From an uncultured Pseudomonadota bacterium (lineage in GTDB: Bacteria; Oederibacteriota; Muellerivitia; Muellerivitales; Muellerivitaceae), in contig CAWIIP010000002.1 in assembly GCA_963836235.1 (NCBI GenBank), forward strand, positions 1-64,000: a stretch of DNA of 64,000 nucleotides. Direction: 5' to 3'. Of this stretch, positions 11,697-50,521 are shown piece after piece. Positions within the stretch are counted from its first letter, which is position 1, and every line of letters starts with the position of its first letter. Under the pieces are notes generated by a model. That model made no database searches and had not been told where the DNA came from. It saw only the letters and a list, made by a program, of their open reading frames with translations. Made by a program: the position numbers and the translations under genes.

Positions 11697-13238
11697 TTAA
11701 AAGTTGGCTTGCGCGCGAACCGTGAAGACATCTTCCGGATGAAGGGTGGTGACCGTTCCCGCCACAACCGGCGTCACCTGAGTTCCTTCGACGAACGTCG
11801 TTTGTTCCCAATCGAAGACCAGCTTGAAGTGCGGGTCAAAAATCCAGTTGAGGCCCGCGCCGAAGGCGGTGGCCTGCTGGGCCGAATTCGTGGCCGCCAA
11901 ATTCTTCGTCCCGGTCGCGTTAAAAGCGTTCGGATCGATGGTCAACTGGTGGGTCCGAACCGCCACTTCCAGGGCGCCCCAATGCCCCTTACGCAAGTCC
12001 AGGGGGGTATCGGCGGTCGCGCCCAAAAAAGAAGCCTTACCACCGATAACCCAGGAAGCCTCCAAAAGGTAGGCCTGGTTGTCCAGGTTCACCGCTGTCG
12101 CGGTGCCGGTTCCCACGTCCTGGGTCGACTTGACATACTCACCCAGGAACCCGAAGGGCCCGTTGTAGTAATAGGCCTGCGGGGACAGATGGTAGAAATT
12201 GCCCTGGGGCCCCACGCCCGAGCGGTAGGCGAAGAACTGCTGTTGTCCCAGCGAGGTGATGAAATAATTGGGTTCGGCGTTGCTGTTCCAATTGACGTTC
12301 CAGGCCAGGCCGCCCGAAATGCCCACTCCCAAACCCTTGAGGAAAGAATCCGTGGTCGTCAAAGGCGTGAGGAAAAGCCGGCCCGTCAATTCCCTTCCGT
12401 CGGTCAGGCTCGAGTCGTCGGTGTTGTTGGGCGTGAAATTGTCCGGCGTGCCGTTGGTCAAGGCGACGGCATAATTGACGCCAGTCAAAGGGGTTCCGTT
12501 CAATTCGGCTCCCAGGTCCCGGTTCGGCGCCAGGTCGGTCGCCAGGGAACGCTCCACGAACAGGTTATCCGTGTCGTTTTGCAGCCTTTCCAGGCCGATG
12601 GGCACCTTGAATTTACCCAACTGGAATTGAAGCGCCGGGTCCGCCTTCACAAAGGCGTAGGCGTCTTGGATGGCATAACCCGTGGACCCGAATTCCGCCT
12701 GATAGCGCAACCCCACCAAATGGTCGAAAATCGCGATCACATCCAACCGAACCTTCCGATCCAGGAAGGTGCTGGTGGACTTGTTGACCGCTGCGCCCGT
12801 GGCGCCTTCTTCCGGGTAAGTCCCGCTTCCGATGGGCAAATAGTCGTCATAACTGGTGGCCGGGGTAAAATAAGTCCGGTAATCCCCCTGAACGACTCCG
12901 CCGAACTTAAGAATTACGTCCCCATCCGGGTCGGACAGGTCCAAATAATTGTGTTCGACCGTGATTAACACGGTTTTCTTTTCCAATAGGTTCAGCCGGT
13001 TGTTGAGCCCTTCCAACCCCGTCACACCCGTCACACCCGTCAAAGCAGGAACATGCGTCGCGTCCCCAACCGTCGCGGCGGCGTCTTTCTCATTGCCGGT
13101 CGAATCCTGGGTAGTGGCGGCTACCGGTGTAGCGTCCGTCCCCTTGTCCGTCTTATCCTGGGCATAGGACCGGCCCACTCCCAAAACCCCCGCTGAAATC
13201 AAAGCTAATACCGCGAATAACCTCTTTCGACTTTTCAT
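11697..13238 (-). CDS. OprO/OprP-family anion-selective porin, probably a sulfate porin
   Basis: Signal peptide, short coiled coil, QDAY, GKFKVPIGLERLQ, FVERSL...LAPNRDLG, WGALEVAVR, GLNW and C-terminal F; directly upstream of sbp. Start chosen at ATG 13238 (RBS AAGGGG); ORF extends to 13265. Confidence 0.85.
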   Translation of the reverse strand: MKSRKRLFAVLALISAGVLGVGRSYAQDKTDKGTDATPVAATTQDSTGNEKDAAATVGDATHVPALTGVTGVTGLEGLNNRLNLLEKKTVLITVEHNYLDLSDPDGDVILKFGGVVQGDYRTYFTPATSYDDYLPIGSGTYPEEGATGAAVNKSTSTFLDRKVRLDVIAIFDHLVGLRYQAEFGSTGYAIQDAYAFVKADPALQFQLGKFKVPIGLERLQNDTDNLFVERSLATDLAPNRDLGAELNGTPLTGVNYAVALTNGTPDNFTPNNTDDSSLTDGRELTGRLFLTPLTTTDSFLKGLGVGISGGLAWNVNWNSNAEPNYFITSLGQQQFFAYRSGVGPQGNFYHLSPQAYYYNGPFGFLGEYVKSTQDVGTGTATAVNLDNQAYLLEASWVIGGKASFLGATADTPLDLRKGHWGALEVAVRTHQLTIDPNAFNATGTKNLAATNSAQQATAFGAGLNWIFDPHFKLVFDWEQTTFVEGTQVTPVVAGTVTTLHPEDVFTVRAQANF

Positions 13239-13355
13239 GACTAACCCCTTTTTATTTTTTCCCATTTTGTATCGCGGCGGGTACCGCTCGGGGTCTTCGA
13301 AAACTTCCCTGACCCCGCTTGAATCAGCGGGTCGGGATACGAACTATCTCGAAGA

Positions 13356-13424
13356 CCGCTTTAGCGCCCTGTTTGGTCTCTTGCGAAACACCGGTCGGGG
13401 CAAGTTGGCATTAAATCCCACCGT
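13356..13424 (-). ncRNA. SAM-II-like riboswitch aptamer (copy 3), upstream of the porin
   Basis: RNA: CGGUGG-GAUUUAA-UG-CCAAC-UUGC-CCCGACCG-[hairpin]-GGGC-GCUAAAGCGG; it has the SAM-II core UUU loop, UUGC and GCUAAA with CC/GG spacing as in the canonical SAM-II aptamer. Followed by a hairpin at 13307-13336 whose 5' arm contains CCGCU. Confidence 0.72.
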
Positions 13425-13471
13425 AAAACTCTTAAACTTCGAACCTTTTAATCACCTCCTTAAAACAAATT

Positions 13472-13578
13472 TTGAACCACGAAAGCACAAAGGGCACCAA
13501 GAACGGCTTTAATCTCTTTTTGTTTAACCAAAAACTCATTTCGACTTTCTTTGTGCCCTTCGTGTCTTCGTGGTTCAA
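13472..13578. repeat. 32-bp inverted repeat element (REP/MITE-like)
   Basis: Left arm ttgaaccacgaaagcacaaagggcaccaagaa (13472-13503) versus reverse complement of the right arm (13547-13578) ttgaaccacgaagacacgaagggcacaaagaa: 28/32 identical, 43-bp AT-rich spacer, 9-nt internal periodicity. Confidence 0.75.
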
Positions 13579-13591
13579 CAGCCCTTCGCCC

Positions 13592-14233
13592 TTACTTCTT
13601 GTTCGGCTGGGGCGTTAGCCTCAGGTAAGGCTTCACCACCCGGTAACCCTTCGGGAAACGCTCTTTCAGTTCCTTCTCATCTTGCAAGGACGGAACGATC
13701 ACCACATCTTCTCCGTCTTTCCAATTCACCGGGGTGGCCACCTTGTAGTTGTCGGTCAACTGCAAGGAATCGATCACCCGCAAAATCTCGTTGAAATTGC
13801 GGCCCGTGCTGGCCGGGTAAGTGATGGTAGCGCGGACTTTTTTGTCCCCGTCGATGATGAAAACCGACCGCACCGTCAAATTCGCCAGCGAGTTCGGGTG
13901 GATCATGTCGTAAAGCGTCGCGACTTCCCGGTCTTTATCAGCCAAAATGGGAAAATTGACCTTGGTGTTCTGGGTTTCGTTGATATCCGGAATCCACTTG
14001 GTGTGGGATTCGTTGGTATCAACGGATAGTGCCAATACTTTCACGCCCCTCTTCTCGAATTCCGATTTCAGGTTGGCGGTCGCCCCTAATTCGGTGGTGC
14101 AAACGGGCGTAAAATCAGCCGGATGGGAAAACAGCACTACCCAGGACTTACCGGCCCATTCGTAAAAATGAATCTTCCCTTCGCTGGAATCCTGCGTGAA
14201 ATCCGGCGCTAAATCTCCTAGTCTTAAAGCCAT
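13592..14233 (-). CDS. 1-Cys peroxiredoxin (Prx6/LsfA-like)
   Basis: FSHPADFTPVCTTELG, YPASTGRNFNEILRVIDSLQLT, VATPVNWK; RBS AGGAGG. Confidence 0.95.
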   Translation of the reverse strand: MALRLGDLAPDFTQDSSEGKIHFYEWAGKSWVVLFSHPADFTPVCTTELGATANLKSEFEKRGVKVLALSVDTNESHTKWIPDINETQNTKVNFPILADKDREVATLYDMIHPNSLANLTVRSVFIIDGDKKVRATITYPASTGRNFNEILRVIDSLQLTDNYKVATPVNWKDGEDVVIVPSLQDEKELKERFPKGYRVVKPYLRLTPQPNKK

Positions 14234-14266
14234 GACATTCCTCCTAAATTTAATTTTGGCGGTCCG

Positions 14267-14309
14267 AAAAACAAAAAACCCGAGACCGCTTTTCGGGCGG
14301 CTCGGGTTT
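14267..14309 (-). terminator. Intrinsic terminator (expression platform of riboswitch copy 2)
   Basis: RNA AAACCCGAGCCGCCCGAAAAGCGGUCUCGGGUUUUUUGUUUUU: GC stem plus U tract. Confidence 0.85.
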
Positions 14310-14327
14310 CCGGATGGAAATCAGGTG

Positions 14328-14456
14328 CCGCTTTAGCCCCCAGTTCTTCCTTCCCCGATGACGGGAAAAAAACGGTCGGGGCAAGTTGGTCAATCCCCTC
14401 TCGGGGATCGCCGAAAGCGCCTTGTTCAGGTCTTTCGCCAATTAAAGCCACACCGC
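14328..14456 (-). ncRNA. SAM-II-like riboswitch aptamer (copy 2, long inserted loops)
   Basis: RNA: GCGGUGUG-GCUUUAA-[~55-nt two-hairpin insert]-CCAAC-UUGC-CCCGACCGU-[hairpin]-GGGG-GCUAAAGCGG. Confidence 0.72.
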
Positions 14457-14496
14457 GTTACTGTAAAAAAACCTATAAATTATGGGTTTTTTGCCC

Positions 14497-14538
14497 AAAA
14501 ACAAAAAACCCGGTCCGCTTTTGGAGCGGATCGGGTTT
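14497..14538 (-). terminator. Intrinsic terminator (expression platform of riboswitch copy 1)
   Basis: RNA AAACCCGAUCCGCUCCAAAAGCGGACCGGGUUUUUUGUUUUU. Confidence 0.85.
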
Positions 14539-14560
14539 GGAGAAGTCTCTCAACCTTTCA

Positions 14561-14653
14561 CCGCTTTAGCTCACTGTTCATGCAGAATCCCAGAAACGAC
14601 TTCCGAGTTTGCTGCAAACGCCGGAGCAAGTTGGAAACTTAAAGCCCGCGTTT
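14561..14653 (-). ncRNA. SAM-II-like riboswitch aptamer (copy 1)
   Basis: RNA: AAACGCGG-GCUUUAA-GUUU-CCAAC-UUGC-UCCGGCGUUU-[hairpin]-GUGA-GCUAAAGCGG; P1 AAACGC/GCGUUU differs in sequence from the other copies but still pairs. Confidence 0.75.
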
Positions 14654-14662
14654 AATGTTCGA

Positions 14663-14691
14663 AGGTTATCCATGTCCGAAAAAAATGTCAA
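14663..14691 (-). promoter_or_regulatory. Sigma70-type promoter of the sulfate operon
   Basis: TTGACA-N17-TAACCT on the minus strand, ending about 10 nt before riboswitch copy 1. Confidence 0.7.
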
Positions 14692-14729
14692 GTCCGATTT
14701 GGAAATATTAATCTTATTAAAAAATCCGT

Positions 14730-16115
14730 TTATTTCCTTTTCCGTTTTCCCTGTCTGTTTAACCGGCTTGAACTCTTTGAATGTGTGGTCTGCTTCCGGG
14801 CAGCCCGGACCGCTTGGGCGGCTTGTGTCCTGCCCAGGTCGGGGGCGGTGTATTGGGTAAGGGTGCGCTTTTGGAGGTCCACCGTCACCGAATCGTCCGG
14901 GGTCTTGGCGGCTCCCCCGTCGCTGGCGGGATGGTACTCGATGCGCAATTGGCTGTCCGTCACGATGACCCGCAGATAGCCGTAATCGCCGTCGTCGTAA
15001 TTCTCGAAAACTACCTGGTCGCTCGAGCCGGAGGCGGTTTGGATGATTTGCGGGGTGCGGAGGGGGTTTCCCGCCTTGGACAGGCGCTGAAGGCCGTGCC
15101 CGCCGTTACCGCAGACGATATAGGGAATTTGAGTGTTATTGGACCGGGTGCGGGTGAAGCGCTGGTAATTATGGGCGTGGCCGGCCAAGAAGGCGTGGGG
15201 CCAGAAGCCCACCTTGTTGCAGATGGCGTCGATCTGTGAGGTCATGAGGGTGCTCCATCCGTGTTTGGAAATGGTGTAAGCCGGATGGTGGGAAGCAATC
15301 AAGAGCGCCCCCTGGTACTTTTCGCTCTTCGCCCGGCTGAACGCGGCGGTCAGGAAATCCAACTGAGAAGTTCCCAGGTCGCTATAGGGCCCGCCGTCCG
15401 CGATGACGCCTGGGTCCTCCAGGGTGTTGCTATAAAGCGCCAGGATGCGGACGAAAGGGGCGTCGAAGGTAAAGAAAACCCCGGGCTGGATTTGAGCCGT
15501 GCGGGAAAGGCCACCCGCCTCGGGCGTAATGGCGAAGTTCTCGGAACAGAAATTTCTCAAGAAAGCGTCCAGGGTGTCCGCCCCGGTCTGGGGGGCTACC
15601 ATGCCATCGTGGTTCCCCGCCGCCGCGAGAATGGGGGCCGGATATTCCCGGTAGGGTTCGTAAAATTGGTCGTAATAATATTGGGCTTCCCCGAAGCTAT
15701 AGACCACGTCCCCCAGCAGGAAATTAAATTGCGGCACTTGCGCGGGATCAGTTTCTTGGAAATCCGCCACCATCTTGTCCGCGACCTCGCTTTCGGTCTT
15801 CGGCCCCAGCGTGCTTCCGCAATCGCCCGTGGCATGGAACACAATTTGGTCTTGGGCGGTGATCTTGTTGATCATCGCGATGTTGCCGCCCAGCACGTCC
15901 GCCAGAGTGAGGGCGGGTTCGTCGGGGCTGTCGGCGCTGGTCCGTGGAGCGGGAAAGGGCAGGGGGTTGATCTTGTGTTCGGCGTTCAACTGATCAATGG
16001 TCTTATAGGCCGCCGCGTCGGACGCGTGTTTGACCCGAAAGGTCGTCGGGTCCTCGGTGGGTTCGGGCTGGGCGAATACCGGCTGGTCGAGCTGTCGGCT
16101 GTCTTGGTTCCCCAT
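14730..16115 (-). CDS. Calcineurin-like metallophosphoesterase (purple acid phosphatase-like)
   Basis: GDCG, LGDVVY, GNHDG, SHHP, GHAHNYQR motifs; RBS GAGGAGGA before ATG 16115. Confidence 0.88.
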   Translation of the reverse strand: MGNQDSRQLDQPVFAQPEPTEDPTTFRVKHASDAAAYKTIDQLNAEHKINPLPFPAPRTSADSPDEPALTLADVLGGNIAMINKITAQDQIVFHATGDCGSTLGPKTESEVADKMVADFQETDPAQVPQFNFLLGDVVYSFGEAQYYYDQFYEPYREYPAPILAAAGNHDGMVAPQTGADTLDAFLRNFCSENFAITPEAGGLSRTAQIQPGVFFTFDAPFVRILALYSNTLEDPGVIADGGPYSDLGTSQLDFLTAAFSRAKSEKYQGALLIASHHPAYTISKHGWSTLMTSQIDAICNKVGFWPHAFLAGHAHNYQRFTRTRSNNTQIPYIVCGNGGHGLQRLSKAGNPLRTPQIIQTASGSSDQVVFENYDDGDYGYLRVIVTDSQLRIEYHPASDGGAAKTPDDSVTVDLQKRTLTQYTAPDLGRTQAAQAVRAARKQTTHSKSSSRLNRQGKRKRK

Positions 16116-50400: not shown

Positions 50401-50521
50401 CTCTCATCTCACCCCGGTTTTTTTGATTCAACCGAAGCAGGAATTGGCACCTAACAGTTCCTTACGGAACCTGGTTGCCGTGGCATCGCAGGGCCTGTCC
50501 CTCCGCCACTCTGGATAAGAG
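50401..50521 (-). ncRNA. SAM-I (S-box) riboswitch
   Basis: RNA CUCUUAUCCAGAGUGGCGGAGGGACAGGCCCUGCGAUGCCACGGCAACC...GGUGCCAAUUCCUGC...GAGAUGAGAG, matching the S-box consensus. Confidence 0.95.

Follow-up and report, generated by a model that had tools for sequence, protein, structure and literature searches.

Putative SAM-II/V-like riboswitches in series before sulfur-acquisition genes of an uncultured bacterium

The closest described systems to the element reported here are two riboswitch classes, SAM-II and SAM-V, that bind S-adenosylmethionine (SAM). In the accessible part of PMC6061858, the SAM-V crystal structure is an H-type pseudoknot with a P1 of 4 base pairs (bp) and a P3 stem-loop past P1; stacked A's make A-minor contacts with P1, the bulged U47 pairs with the adenine of SAM, a U20:A48.U9 triple lies beside the sulfonium and A50 holds the amino-acid end. 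The same part of that paper gives SAM-II no P3 and a long G-C-rich P2a, and it describes SAM-II as mostly transcriptional and SAM-V as translational. Tandem arrangements are also on record, and the accessible part of PMC9481103 counts 44 tandem SAM-II (some of them with a terminator for each aptamer), 164 double SAM-I and 1 triple SAM-I. Here we describe a related motif found in three copies in the first 64,000 nucleotides (nt) of contig CAWIIP010000002.1 (assembly GCA_963836235.1, an uncultured bacterium of the GTDB family Muellerivitaceae), a stretch that we call the window. All riboswitch elements and the genes that they would gate were read on its minus strand, to which the window coordinates below refer. 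We consider it probable, from sequence and comparative data, that these elements are SAM-sensing transcriptional OFF switches of SAM-II/V architecture, two of them acting in series before a peroxiredoxin gene and a third placed before transporter genes.

Three copies of the motif and their expression platforms

An earlier note, made from the letters of this DNA alone, had proposed three homologous copies, and its proposal is borne out: an exact two-block pattern matches the 3.97-megabase genome three times on the reverse strand, all of them here, with no match on the forward strand and none in a control read backwards. The blocks common to the three copies are UUUAA, CCAACUUGC(C/U)CCG and AAC(A/U)G(G/U)G-N-GCUAAAGCGG, and the decamer GCUAAAGCGG lies at 14570-14561 in copy 1, at 14337-14328 in copy 2 and at 13365-13356 in copy 3. 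Copy 1 (14560..14653, 94 nt) scores 64.7 bits with the covariance model R1 described below and consists of P1 ACGC/GCGU, a third strand GGGCUUUAAG, a block CCAACUUGCUCC, a long P3 insert and the tail AACAGUGAGCUAAAGCGG. Copy 2 (14327..14456) has P1 CGGU/ACCG, a P3 hairpin and the tail AACUGGGGGCUAAAGCGG; R1 recognizes it over 14405-14327 with 42.9 bits, and its 5' half was located by motif, a hairpin-bearing insert of 52 nt separating UUUAA from CCAAC. The same insert architecture recurs in a genome of the same genus (L023). Copy 3 (13355..13425, 70.5 bits) carries P1 CGGU/ACCG and the third strand GGGAUUUAAUG; its P3 is short and its tail reads AACAGGGCGCUAAAGCGG. The letters of P1 thus vary among the copies with pairing kept, as had been noticed before.

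Element 1 starts about 10 nt past the TAACCT box of a putative promoter (14663..14691), in which TTGACA (14691-14686) and TAACCT (14668-14663) are separated by 17 nt and preceded by an A/T-rich stretch. This promoter had also been pointed out in the earlier note. A generic promoter scan made no call at 14663-14691, where TAACCT matches just 3 of 6 positions. Despite this miss the promoter is supported by its conservation, since a TTGAC and a TAnnnT box are found in a similar place, shortly 5' of P1, in all 24 of the first elements examined in relatives, where an A/T-rich stretch usually precedes them too.

Each copy is followed by a hairpin that contains CCGC. Terminator 1 (14497..14538) is a stem of AAACCCGAUCCGC and GCGGACCGGGUUU followed by UUUUUUGUUUUU, and the CCGCU of its 5' arm is the complement of AGCGG in the aptamer; its fold reaches -22.8 kcal/mol (z -3.1), and a terminator scan calls its inner hairpin (14530-14514). 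Terminator 2 (14267..14309) pairs AAACCCGAGCCGC with GCGGUCUCGGGUUU before UUUUUUGUUUUU and folds with -24.7 kcal/mol (z -3.2). CCGC is present in both 5' arms, and both hairpins end in the same tail GGGUUUUUUGUUUUU, an identity already remarked upon from the letters. The platform of copy 3 (13268..13355, 88 nt) is different. A 9-bp outer helix of UCUUCGAGA with UUUUCGAAGA starts right after GCGG and encloses a CCGC hairpin (13336-13307), which is followed just by AAGUUUUCG, with no canonical U-tract; a small GCGGU/GCCGC hairpin (13287-13274) is also part of this platform, the whole folding with -34.7 kcal/mol (z -2.8). The claim of a hairpin after every copy therefore stands for the CCGC hairpin in all three, but copy 3 lacks a canonical terminator. 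Platforms of the copy 3 type are kept in six other porin leaders (among them those in L057, L058, L059, L083 and L105) and include a conserved small hairpin, CCCCGAGCGG..CCGCG; other relatives have a normal U-tract at this place.

We surveyed the platforms of the 149 elements for which 80 nt or more of sequence was available downstream. A stable hairpin with a U-tract follows 129 of them, at a median distance of 50 nt between the end of the aptamer and the U-tract. The complementarity between CCGC and the aptamer GCGG that the earlier note had described is real and conserved: 113 of these 129 terminator-linked elements have CCGC within the 45 nt that precede the U-tract, against 15 to 46 for six other GC four-mers taken outside the conserved stem, and CCCG, which is part of that stem, occurs in 103. 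In 90 cases CCGC lies wholly within the 5' arm, and its partner GCGG is found in the 3' arm in just 63. The complementarity of the 5' arm to the aptamer is thus kept more strictly than that to its own 3' arm, as an anti-terminator design predicts, and constitutes indirect evidence for such a design.

Conserved structure of the aptamer and its ligand-contact positions

The covariance model R1 was built on alignment A2, which holds 30 seed sequences taken from exact-pattern matches in relatives. Allowing up to 2 mismatches in a looser search of 41 genomes brought as much noise as the control did, and exact matches alone were kept as seeds. RNAalifold finds a stem with compensatory changes in 4 of 6 pairs already in these 30 sequences. 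The counts below come from alignment A3, in which 149 distinct sequences are aligned to R1, and the consensus is also derived from it. Covariation had been looked to in the earlier note for both P1 and P2. All 5 pairs of P1 covary, as illustrated by pair 4-35 (GC in 92 sequences, CG in 50), pair 3-36 (CG 75, AU 48) and pair 6-33 (CG 114, UA 22). The P3 hairpin is variable and covaries as well, pair 38-52 being UA in 46, CG in 30, GC in 11 and AU in 9 sequences. In P2 clear covariation is confined to the long-range pair between G32, just 5' of the P1 return strand, and C57, within the AAC-A block: A-U replaces G-C in 4 sequences, U-A and C-G in 1 each and G-U in 2. This covariation fits the pseudoknot helix P2.

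The P2 pairs that we propose are C20-G72 and C21-G71, then C24-G69, U25-A68 and U26-A67, then G27-C64 and C28-G63, and finally C29-G61, C30-G60 and C31-G59. Paired cells amount to 98.2% in the upper part of P2 and 93.0% in the lower part, with hardly any variation. Five measures of the whole structure all exceed those of shuffled alignments (the observed value is reached in at most 1 of 500) and of slid controls, both of which, as the tool warns, favour a structure derived from the consensus. We regard P1, P3 and the 32-57 pair as shown by covariation; the remaining pairs of P2 are consistent with the alignment but unproven. A coordinated subtype of 23 sequences, among them copy 1 of the window, was also noticed in A3. 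Its members have no A8, U29 in place of C, C or U60 in place of G, and A62, and these changes at positions 7-8, 29, 60 and 62 do not amount to simple Watson-Crick compensation.

The many invariant nucleotides would also fit a site recognized by a protein or by another RNA, for instance an attenuator bound by a sulfur-responsive RNA-binding protein. We think this very unlikely. Block by block, the proposed compact pseudoknot repeats the binding core of SAM-II/V, and the same aptamer is found in several phyla joined to either terminator or Shine-Dalgarno platforms, as is typical of riboswitches; beside the arrays we noticed no conserved gene that could be a candidate regulator.

The correspondence with the SAM-binding core is close. 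The SAM_alpha consensus reads P1, GAUUUG..CCGGCUUGC, the P1 return strand, an A-rich loop and GCUAAAgAGGCC. A marine SAM-II (L215:1508-1583; 38.1 bits, gathering threshold 36) reads GAUUUGA..AUUGC..GCUAAAGCG, and the terminator that follows it has a 5' arm complementary to the tail. The motif of the window shares with both a UUU-containing L1, (C/A)UUGC and GCUAAAG(CG), in the same order. We also mapped the positions of SAM-V onto the motif by aligning conserved blocks, a mapping made by inference and not by an alignment tool, and took the counts from A3. The bulged U47 corresponds to U65, and A48, A49 and A50 to A66-A68, each conserved in 148 of 149 sequences. U19, U20 and G21 fall on U25, U26 and G27 (140 of 140 ungapped sequences), and U8, U9 and U10 on U12 (136 of 149, with G in 11), U13 (145) and U14 (140). 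The A-minor residues A41 and A42 match A55 (146/149) and A56 (147/149). The partner of A50 is C in 129 and A in 11 sequences, C being the consensus of SAM-II and A that of SAM-V. On this block mapping, the positions equivalent to the SAM contacts (the bulged U, the U:A.U triple and the A at the amino-acid end) would be 91-100% conserved here. The assignment to SAM-II/V given in the earlier note accordingly holds for core motifs and architecture, whether judged by the SAM_alpha consensus, the marine SAM-II or the SAM-V contacts.

Distribution of the family and its regulon

A covariance model built from homologs had been suggested in advance as a way to follow the motif, and R1 finds about 139 copies in 35 of the 99 genomes of the phylum to which the window belongs. 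Of these, 137 come from the phylum search and 2, weaker, from a search of the family. By family, matches occur in 28 of 30 genomes of f1 plus the window's own genome, 1 of 1 of f2, 3 of 5 of f3, 1 of 5 of f5 and 1 of 2 of f14, with none in the other 18 families. In the window's family, 29 of 31 genomes carry the element, with up to 12 copies each. Two R1 matches (G011:C56 and G041:C34; E about 3-4e-4) precede unrelated genes and are probably false; they were counted only among the 139.

Outside this phylum the element is sparse. A scan with the pattern in one genome per species, restricted to elements in which CCAAC and GCGG are no more than about 63 nt apart, returned 58 stretches from records titled candidate division FCPU426, Elusimicrobia/Elusimicrobiota, Acidobacteria, Desantisbacteria, Firestonebacteria and others. 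R1 confirms, with 57-81 bits, 17 of the 18 tested loci whose titles lie outside FCPU426 (Elusimicrobia, Acidobacteria, Desantisbacteria). A Clostridia-titled record (L153) fits the pattern, fails R1 and was taken as a chance match. Five genomes outside FCPU426 carry one or two copies each, and in a second phylum, larger than that of the window, R1 matches 8 of 151 sampled genomes. Such sparse copies, set against up to 12 per genome inside, indicate a strong expansion specific to the window's family.

Many copies per genome, often clustered, could also be expected of a dispersed repeat or of the remnant of a mobile element devoid of regulatory role. To this explanation we give almost no credence. 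The element is always oriented with its downstream gene, between a conserved promoter and a start codon, and occurs before sulfur-related operons only; compensatory changes keep its stems, its loops are invariant, and 129 of 149 copies are coupled to terminators.

The window's own genome holds four R1 matches, the three copies of the window and a divergent one of 36.4 bits on another contig (G000:C4:210069-210147 (+); L169:1501-1579), which is also the best match of this genome to the SAM-V model, with 23.1 bits. Its SAM-V-like tail, ACUAAAAAGGAG, holds a Shine-Dalgarno sequence in P2a, 9 nt before an ATG, and by its sequence this copy is a bridging, Shine-Dalgarno-sequestering form. It precedes a TPR protein of 387 amino acids (aa) and a 5'-nucleotidase (NT5C); similar copies of the Shine-Dalgarno type in two relatives precede a 163-aa open reading frame (ORF) with no Pfam match, together with NT5C.

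The 139 matches form 85 arrays, 41 of them single, 34 double and 10 triple, so that 44 of 85 are double or triple; triple arrays stand mainly before operons for a porin and a sulfate-binding protein. We labelled 148 + 47 downstream ORFs with Pfam and counted the first labelled gene of each array. Porin O/P with a sulfate-binding protein comes first in 16 arrays, and a further 4 have a porin-sized ORF lacking a Pfam match. A 1-Cys peroxiredoxin is first in at least 13 arrays and a MetY-type sulfhydrylase in at least 9 (7 with MetY and CysK, 1 with MetY alone and 1 with MetY after DUF3034). ExbB-ExbD-TonB with a TonB-dependent receptor follows in 4 arrays and ABC ATPases in 3. Represented by single arrays are CysH with CysD, CysD with CysN, a sulfite reductase, a CysK-like protein with CysE, a DsrE-like protein, an SrpI-type encapsulin with a cysteine desulfurase, an NMT1-type binding protein with a rhodanese, a nitroreductase, a methyltransferase and DUF3034. 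Several arrays precede small ORFs without a Pfam match. Another 11 have no labelled ORF, some because they lie at the end of a contig and some because of a mismatch of ORF keys, and at least 3 of these have an ORF of the size of the peroxiredoxin or the porin. The loci from other phyla show a sulfate transporter, the porin, MetY with an alpha/beta-hydrolase-fold protein, MetY with CysK, an ABC ATPase with APS kinase, DsrE and DUF3034. The leaders of the SrpI-type encapsulin and of the ExbB-ExbD-TonB-receptor operons are found in L054 (G003:C1), L051, L055, L064, L091 and L098, some of them after ORFs of 109-182 aa without a Pfam match, and the presence of the motif before ExbB-ExbD-TonB operons points to sulfur-regulated TonB-dependent uptake. 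Taken as a whole, the regulon deduced from these gene neighbourhoods is sulfur acquisition together with cysteine and methionine synthesis, with one element apparently serving the whole programme in these bacteria.

This gene content bears on the identity of the ligand. An RNA of the same SAM-II/V fold could have changed its ligand to another metabolite that reports sulfur status, such as an adenosyl-sulfur compound or an intermediate of the cysteine pathway, leaving SAM to be reported by SAM-I. The regulon is centred on sulfate uptake, activation and reduction, on CysK and CysE, on organosulfur uptake and on genes of the sulfate-starvation type, and none of the 85 arrays was seen to have metK, metE or metH downstream. 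SAM-I coexists with the motif in 27 of the 31 genomes of the window's family, as one copy in 25 and as two in 2. The motif also has features absent from the SAM-II/V consensus, namely the GAGG segment, the CCC/GGG-N extension and the G32-C57 pair, and close variants of other riboswitch aptamers have switched ligand, as the accessible parts of PMC10853860, PMC6298564 and PMC9295807 describe. We nevertheless hold a changed ligand to be unlikely: all SAM-V positions in contact with SAM are conserved according to the block mapping, and MetY is among the genes most commonly regulated, with a MetX-like protein (as we read a 372-aa protein of the alpha/beta-hydrolase fold) after it in some loci. S-box (SAM-I) riboswitches in Firmicutes also control sulfate-assimilation operons. 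It is accordingly doubtful that the GAGG strand, the CCC/GGG-N helix and G32-C57 would retune the aptamer to another sulfur metabolite or to a very different range of SAM. Were it so, the element would do as an RNA, for sulfur starvation in uncultured phyla, what a master regulator of the CysB type does, with a regulon including TonB-dependent uptake, the cysteine-desulfurase encapsulin and several proteins without an assigned function.

In the window itself, the first gene past the tandem pair encodes a 1-Cys peroxiredoxin of 213 aa (13592..14233; Pfam AhpC-TSA, 1.2e-33, and 1-cysPrx_C). Copy 3 precedes genes that were identified from ORFs and Pfam as porin O/P (13265-11697), a sulfate-binding protein (11681-10650), two permeases (10619-9792 and 9784-8876) and an ABC ATPase (8879-7839). 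The sequencing runs listed as containing this locus are 6 of DNA, with none of RNA. Between the stop codon of the peroxiredoxin gene and copy 3 lies a long, nearly perfect inverted repeat with arms of about 30 bp (13467..13583), which gave merely spurious, below-threshold matches to microRNA-like hairpins in Rfam (E<=10) and may represent a repeat element, a terminator or a site of processing. Farther away, at 50401-50521, is the sole SAM-I riboswitch of this genome (80.9 bits), followed by an ORF (50315-49083) for a 410-aa ThrC-like pyridoxal-phosphate-dependent enzyme with an N-terminal zinc-ribbon-like motif.

The proposed switch and described SAM riboswitches

The SAM-sensing switch that we favour would work as follows. 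P1, of 4-5 bp, would be followed by a third strand, G(A)GGCUUUAAG, lying in P2's major groove, and P2 would form between CCAACUUGCCCC(G) and the 3' tail C-A-GGG-N-GC-U-AAAG-C-GG, with the variable P3 and two conserved A's placed in the loop that crosses P1. SAM would be held in the triplex as in SAM-II and SAM-V, its adenine paired to the bulged U in GC-U-AAA and the sulfonium placed beside a U:A.U triple. Bound ligand would lock the tail, including its terminal GCGG, against the CC of CCAAC. In the ligand-free RNA, AGCGG would pair with the CCGC(U) of the 5' arm of the downstream hairpin and act as an anti-terminator; with ligand, this arm would pair with its own 3' arm, the terminator would form and transcription would stop. 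The peroxiredoxin gene would thus be gated by two complete switches in series, and the porin with the sulfate ABC transporter by a third element with a different platform devoid of a canonical U-tract. Across the family the same element would control the whole sulfur-acquisition regulon.

Several results weigh against this proposal and are gathered here. With regard to structure, most pairs of P2 are invariant, and covariation is therefore neutral on the pseudoknot. A rival Watson-Crick scheme, in which GCUUUA pairs with UAAAGC, likewise reaches 93% pairing. We do not favour this scheme, since no compensation is ever seen for its C-to-A and U-to-G changes, and a triplex would account for the same complementarity. 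RNAalifold in turn indicates that G9-G10 could extend P1 through C30-C31, an extension which may be the ligand-free state. As to switching, minimum-free-energy folds always contain the terminator and never the anti-terminator of about 5 bp, and the duplex between tail and arm, at -8.1 kcal/mol, gains only slightly over a reversed-tail control at -6.8 kcal/mol. Copy 3 is among the 20 of 149 elements without a called terminator-like hairpin. Physiologically, a second SAM sensor is not strictly needed where SAM-I coexists, and the SAM-I of this genome precedes another gene.

The model searches are a further such point. Rfam 15 at gathering thresholds matches only the SAM-I of the window and leaves the three loci unmatched, and a search of 13200-14760 at E<=10 returned 9 weak, spurious matches with no SAM family among them. 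Genome-wide, SAM-II (RF00521, gathering 36 bits) gave 12 sub-threshold matches with a best score of 25.3 bits, SAM-II long loops (RF01726, gathering 44 bits) gave 8 with a maximum of 18.1 bits and SAM-V (RF01826, gathering 41 bits) gave 2, none of them at the three loci. That standard models would miss these copies had been foreseen in the earlier note, and none of the three Rfam families reports them even at E<=10. A natural variant of 53 nt without P3 (L094:201-253) is likewise unmatched by the Rfam SAM models. In the opposite direction, R1 was run with filters off on marine loci fetched by two blocks of the SAM-V consensus, of which 20 of the 80 listed were scanned. These 20 loci hold 21 SAM-V and 2 SAM-II elements that pass gathering, and R1 gave no significant same-strand match to any of them, its best same-strand overlaps on the two SAM-II reaching 6.6 and 4.1 bits. 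Its best matches on these loci were on the opposite strand and weak, 13-15 bits (L223:1196-1275 (-), L197:2134-2213 (+) and similar ones). As we read L215, they probably arise from CUAAAGCGGU, whose reverse complement is the terminator arm upstream, and they are a reminder that terminator arms may mimic the tail of an aptamer. Since model searches fail in both directions, the motif is not a member of SAM-II or SAM-V by Rfam criteria, and its resemblance to them, as far as sequence comparison goes, is one of short invariant blocks and architecture and not of statistically detectable similarity. The best sub-threshold RF00521 match of the genome, at G000:C2:820782-820901 (+) (L033:1501-1620), scores 25.3 bits with an insert of 41 nt; it has no relation to the matches of the R1 family and may be a degenerate or divergent SAM-II or a product of chance.

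The serial use of terminators is not new in itself, given the tandem SAM-II, some with a terminator each, in the accessible part of PMC9481103. Together with the mainly transcriptional action of SAM-II, reported in the accessible part of PMC6061858, this makes the design principle a known one; the earlier note, whose background had both classes acting mostly in translation, was partly off on this point. The novelty that it saw is accordingly upheld as regards existing families, none of which matches in Rfam, and lessened as regards the tandem design. A literature search that left supplements and subscription journals outside its scope found neither this motif described nor a riboswitch from candidate division FCPU426 nor any SAM-II/V variant placed ahead of genes for sulfate uptake. 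What appears to be new is a subclass unseen by Rfam 15, the mixture of SAM-II and SAM-V features, the hosts, the breadth of the regulon and the frequency of double and triple arrays.

Rfam 15 overlooks about 160 elements over the 79 loci searched, in at least two phyla, and a new or widened SAM-II/V model would annotate them. By joining the core and terminators of SAM-II with the P3 and short P2a of SAM-V, the motif links the two classes and helps to explain how these aptamers diversified, and one genome holds both a terminator form and a Shine-Dalgarno-sequestering form. On the side of physiology, one RNA element apparently controls the uptake and reduction of sulfate, the synthesis of cysteine and homocysteine, a 1-Cys peroxiredoxin, TonB systems and an SrpI-type encapsulin with a cysteine desulfurase, and this regulon provides functional leads for uncharacterised genes such as DUF3034 and the ORFs of 109-182 aa. 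The frequent double and triple arrays would also offer a natural system for the study of steep, "digital" riboswitch responses.

In comparison with SAM-II (RF00521), the motif would have the same H-type pseudoknot layout, and it has a U-rich L1, GAUUUG in SAM-II and G(C/A)UUUAA here, a descending strand that ends in CUUGC and an identical GCUAAAG tail followed by G-rich partners of P2a. As in SAM-II, regulation would be mostly transcriptional, with the 5' arm of an intrinsic terminator complementing the tail, and tandem copies with their own terminators are published for that class. Unlike SAM-II, the motif has a covarying P3, its P2a is CC/GG instead of GGCC/GGCC, it lives in other phyla, and its regulon is sulfur acquisition and not mainly met genes. 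With SAM-V (RF01826) it shares the order of P3 stem-loop past P1, stacked A's and ascending P2 strand, a P2a of 2 bp and, by the block mapping, the same ligand-contact positions. The lower part of P2, in contrast, is GCCCC/GGGNGC here and GUGC/GCAC in SAM-V, and the motif would act through transcription termination, a Shine-Dalgarno-sequestering P2a being confined to minor variants (L047, L049, L089, L116). Neither class has the three extra C's and the G between UUGC and the P1 return strand, the matching GGG-N (plus C) before GCUAAAG in the tail or the extra GAGG before the U-run. Judged by these alignments, the motif is a new, divergent subclass of the SAM-II/V kind, outside both RF00521 and RF01826. 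Like the tandem, "pseudo-cooperative" riboswitches, it places two or three complete switches with the same presumed ligand in one leader, but here such arrays (34 double and 10 triple of 85) are the norm. Finally, as in the S-box regulon of Firmicutes, a SAM-type riboswitch coupled to terminators would serve as a global regulator of sulfur genes; the aptamer fold, however, is unrelated to that of SAM-I, which is present in these bacteria mostly as one copy per genome.

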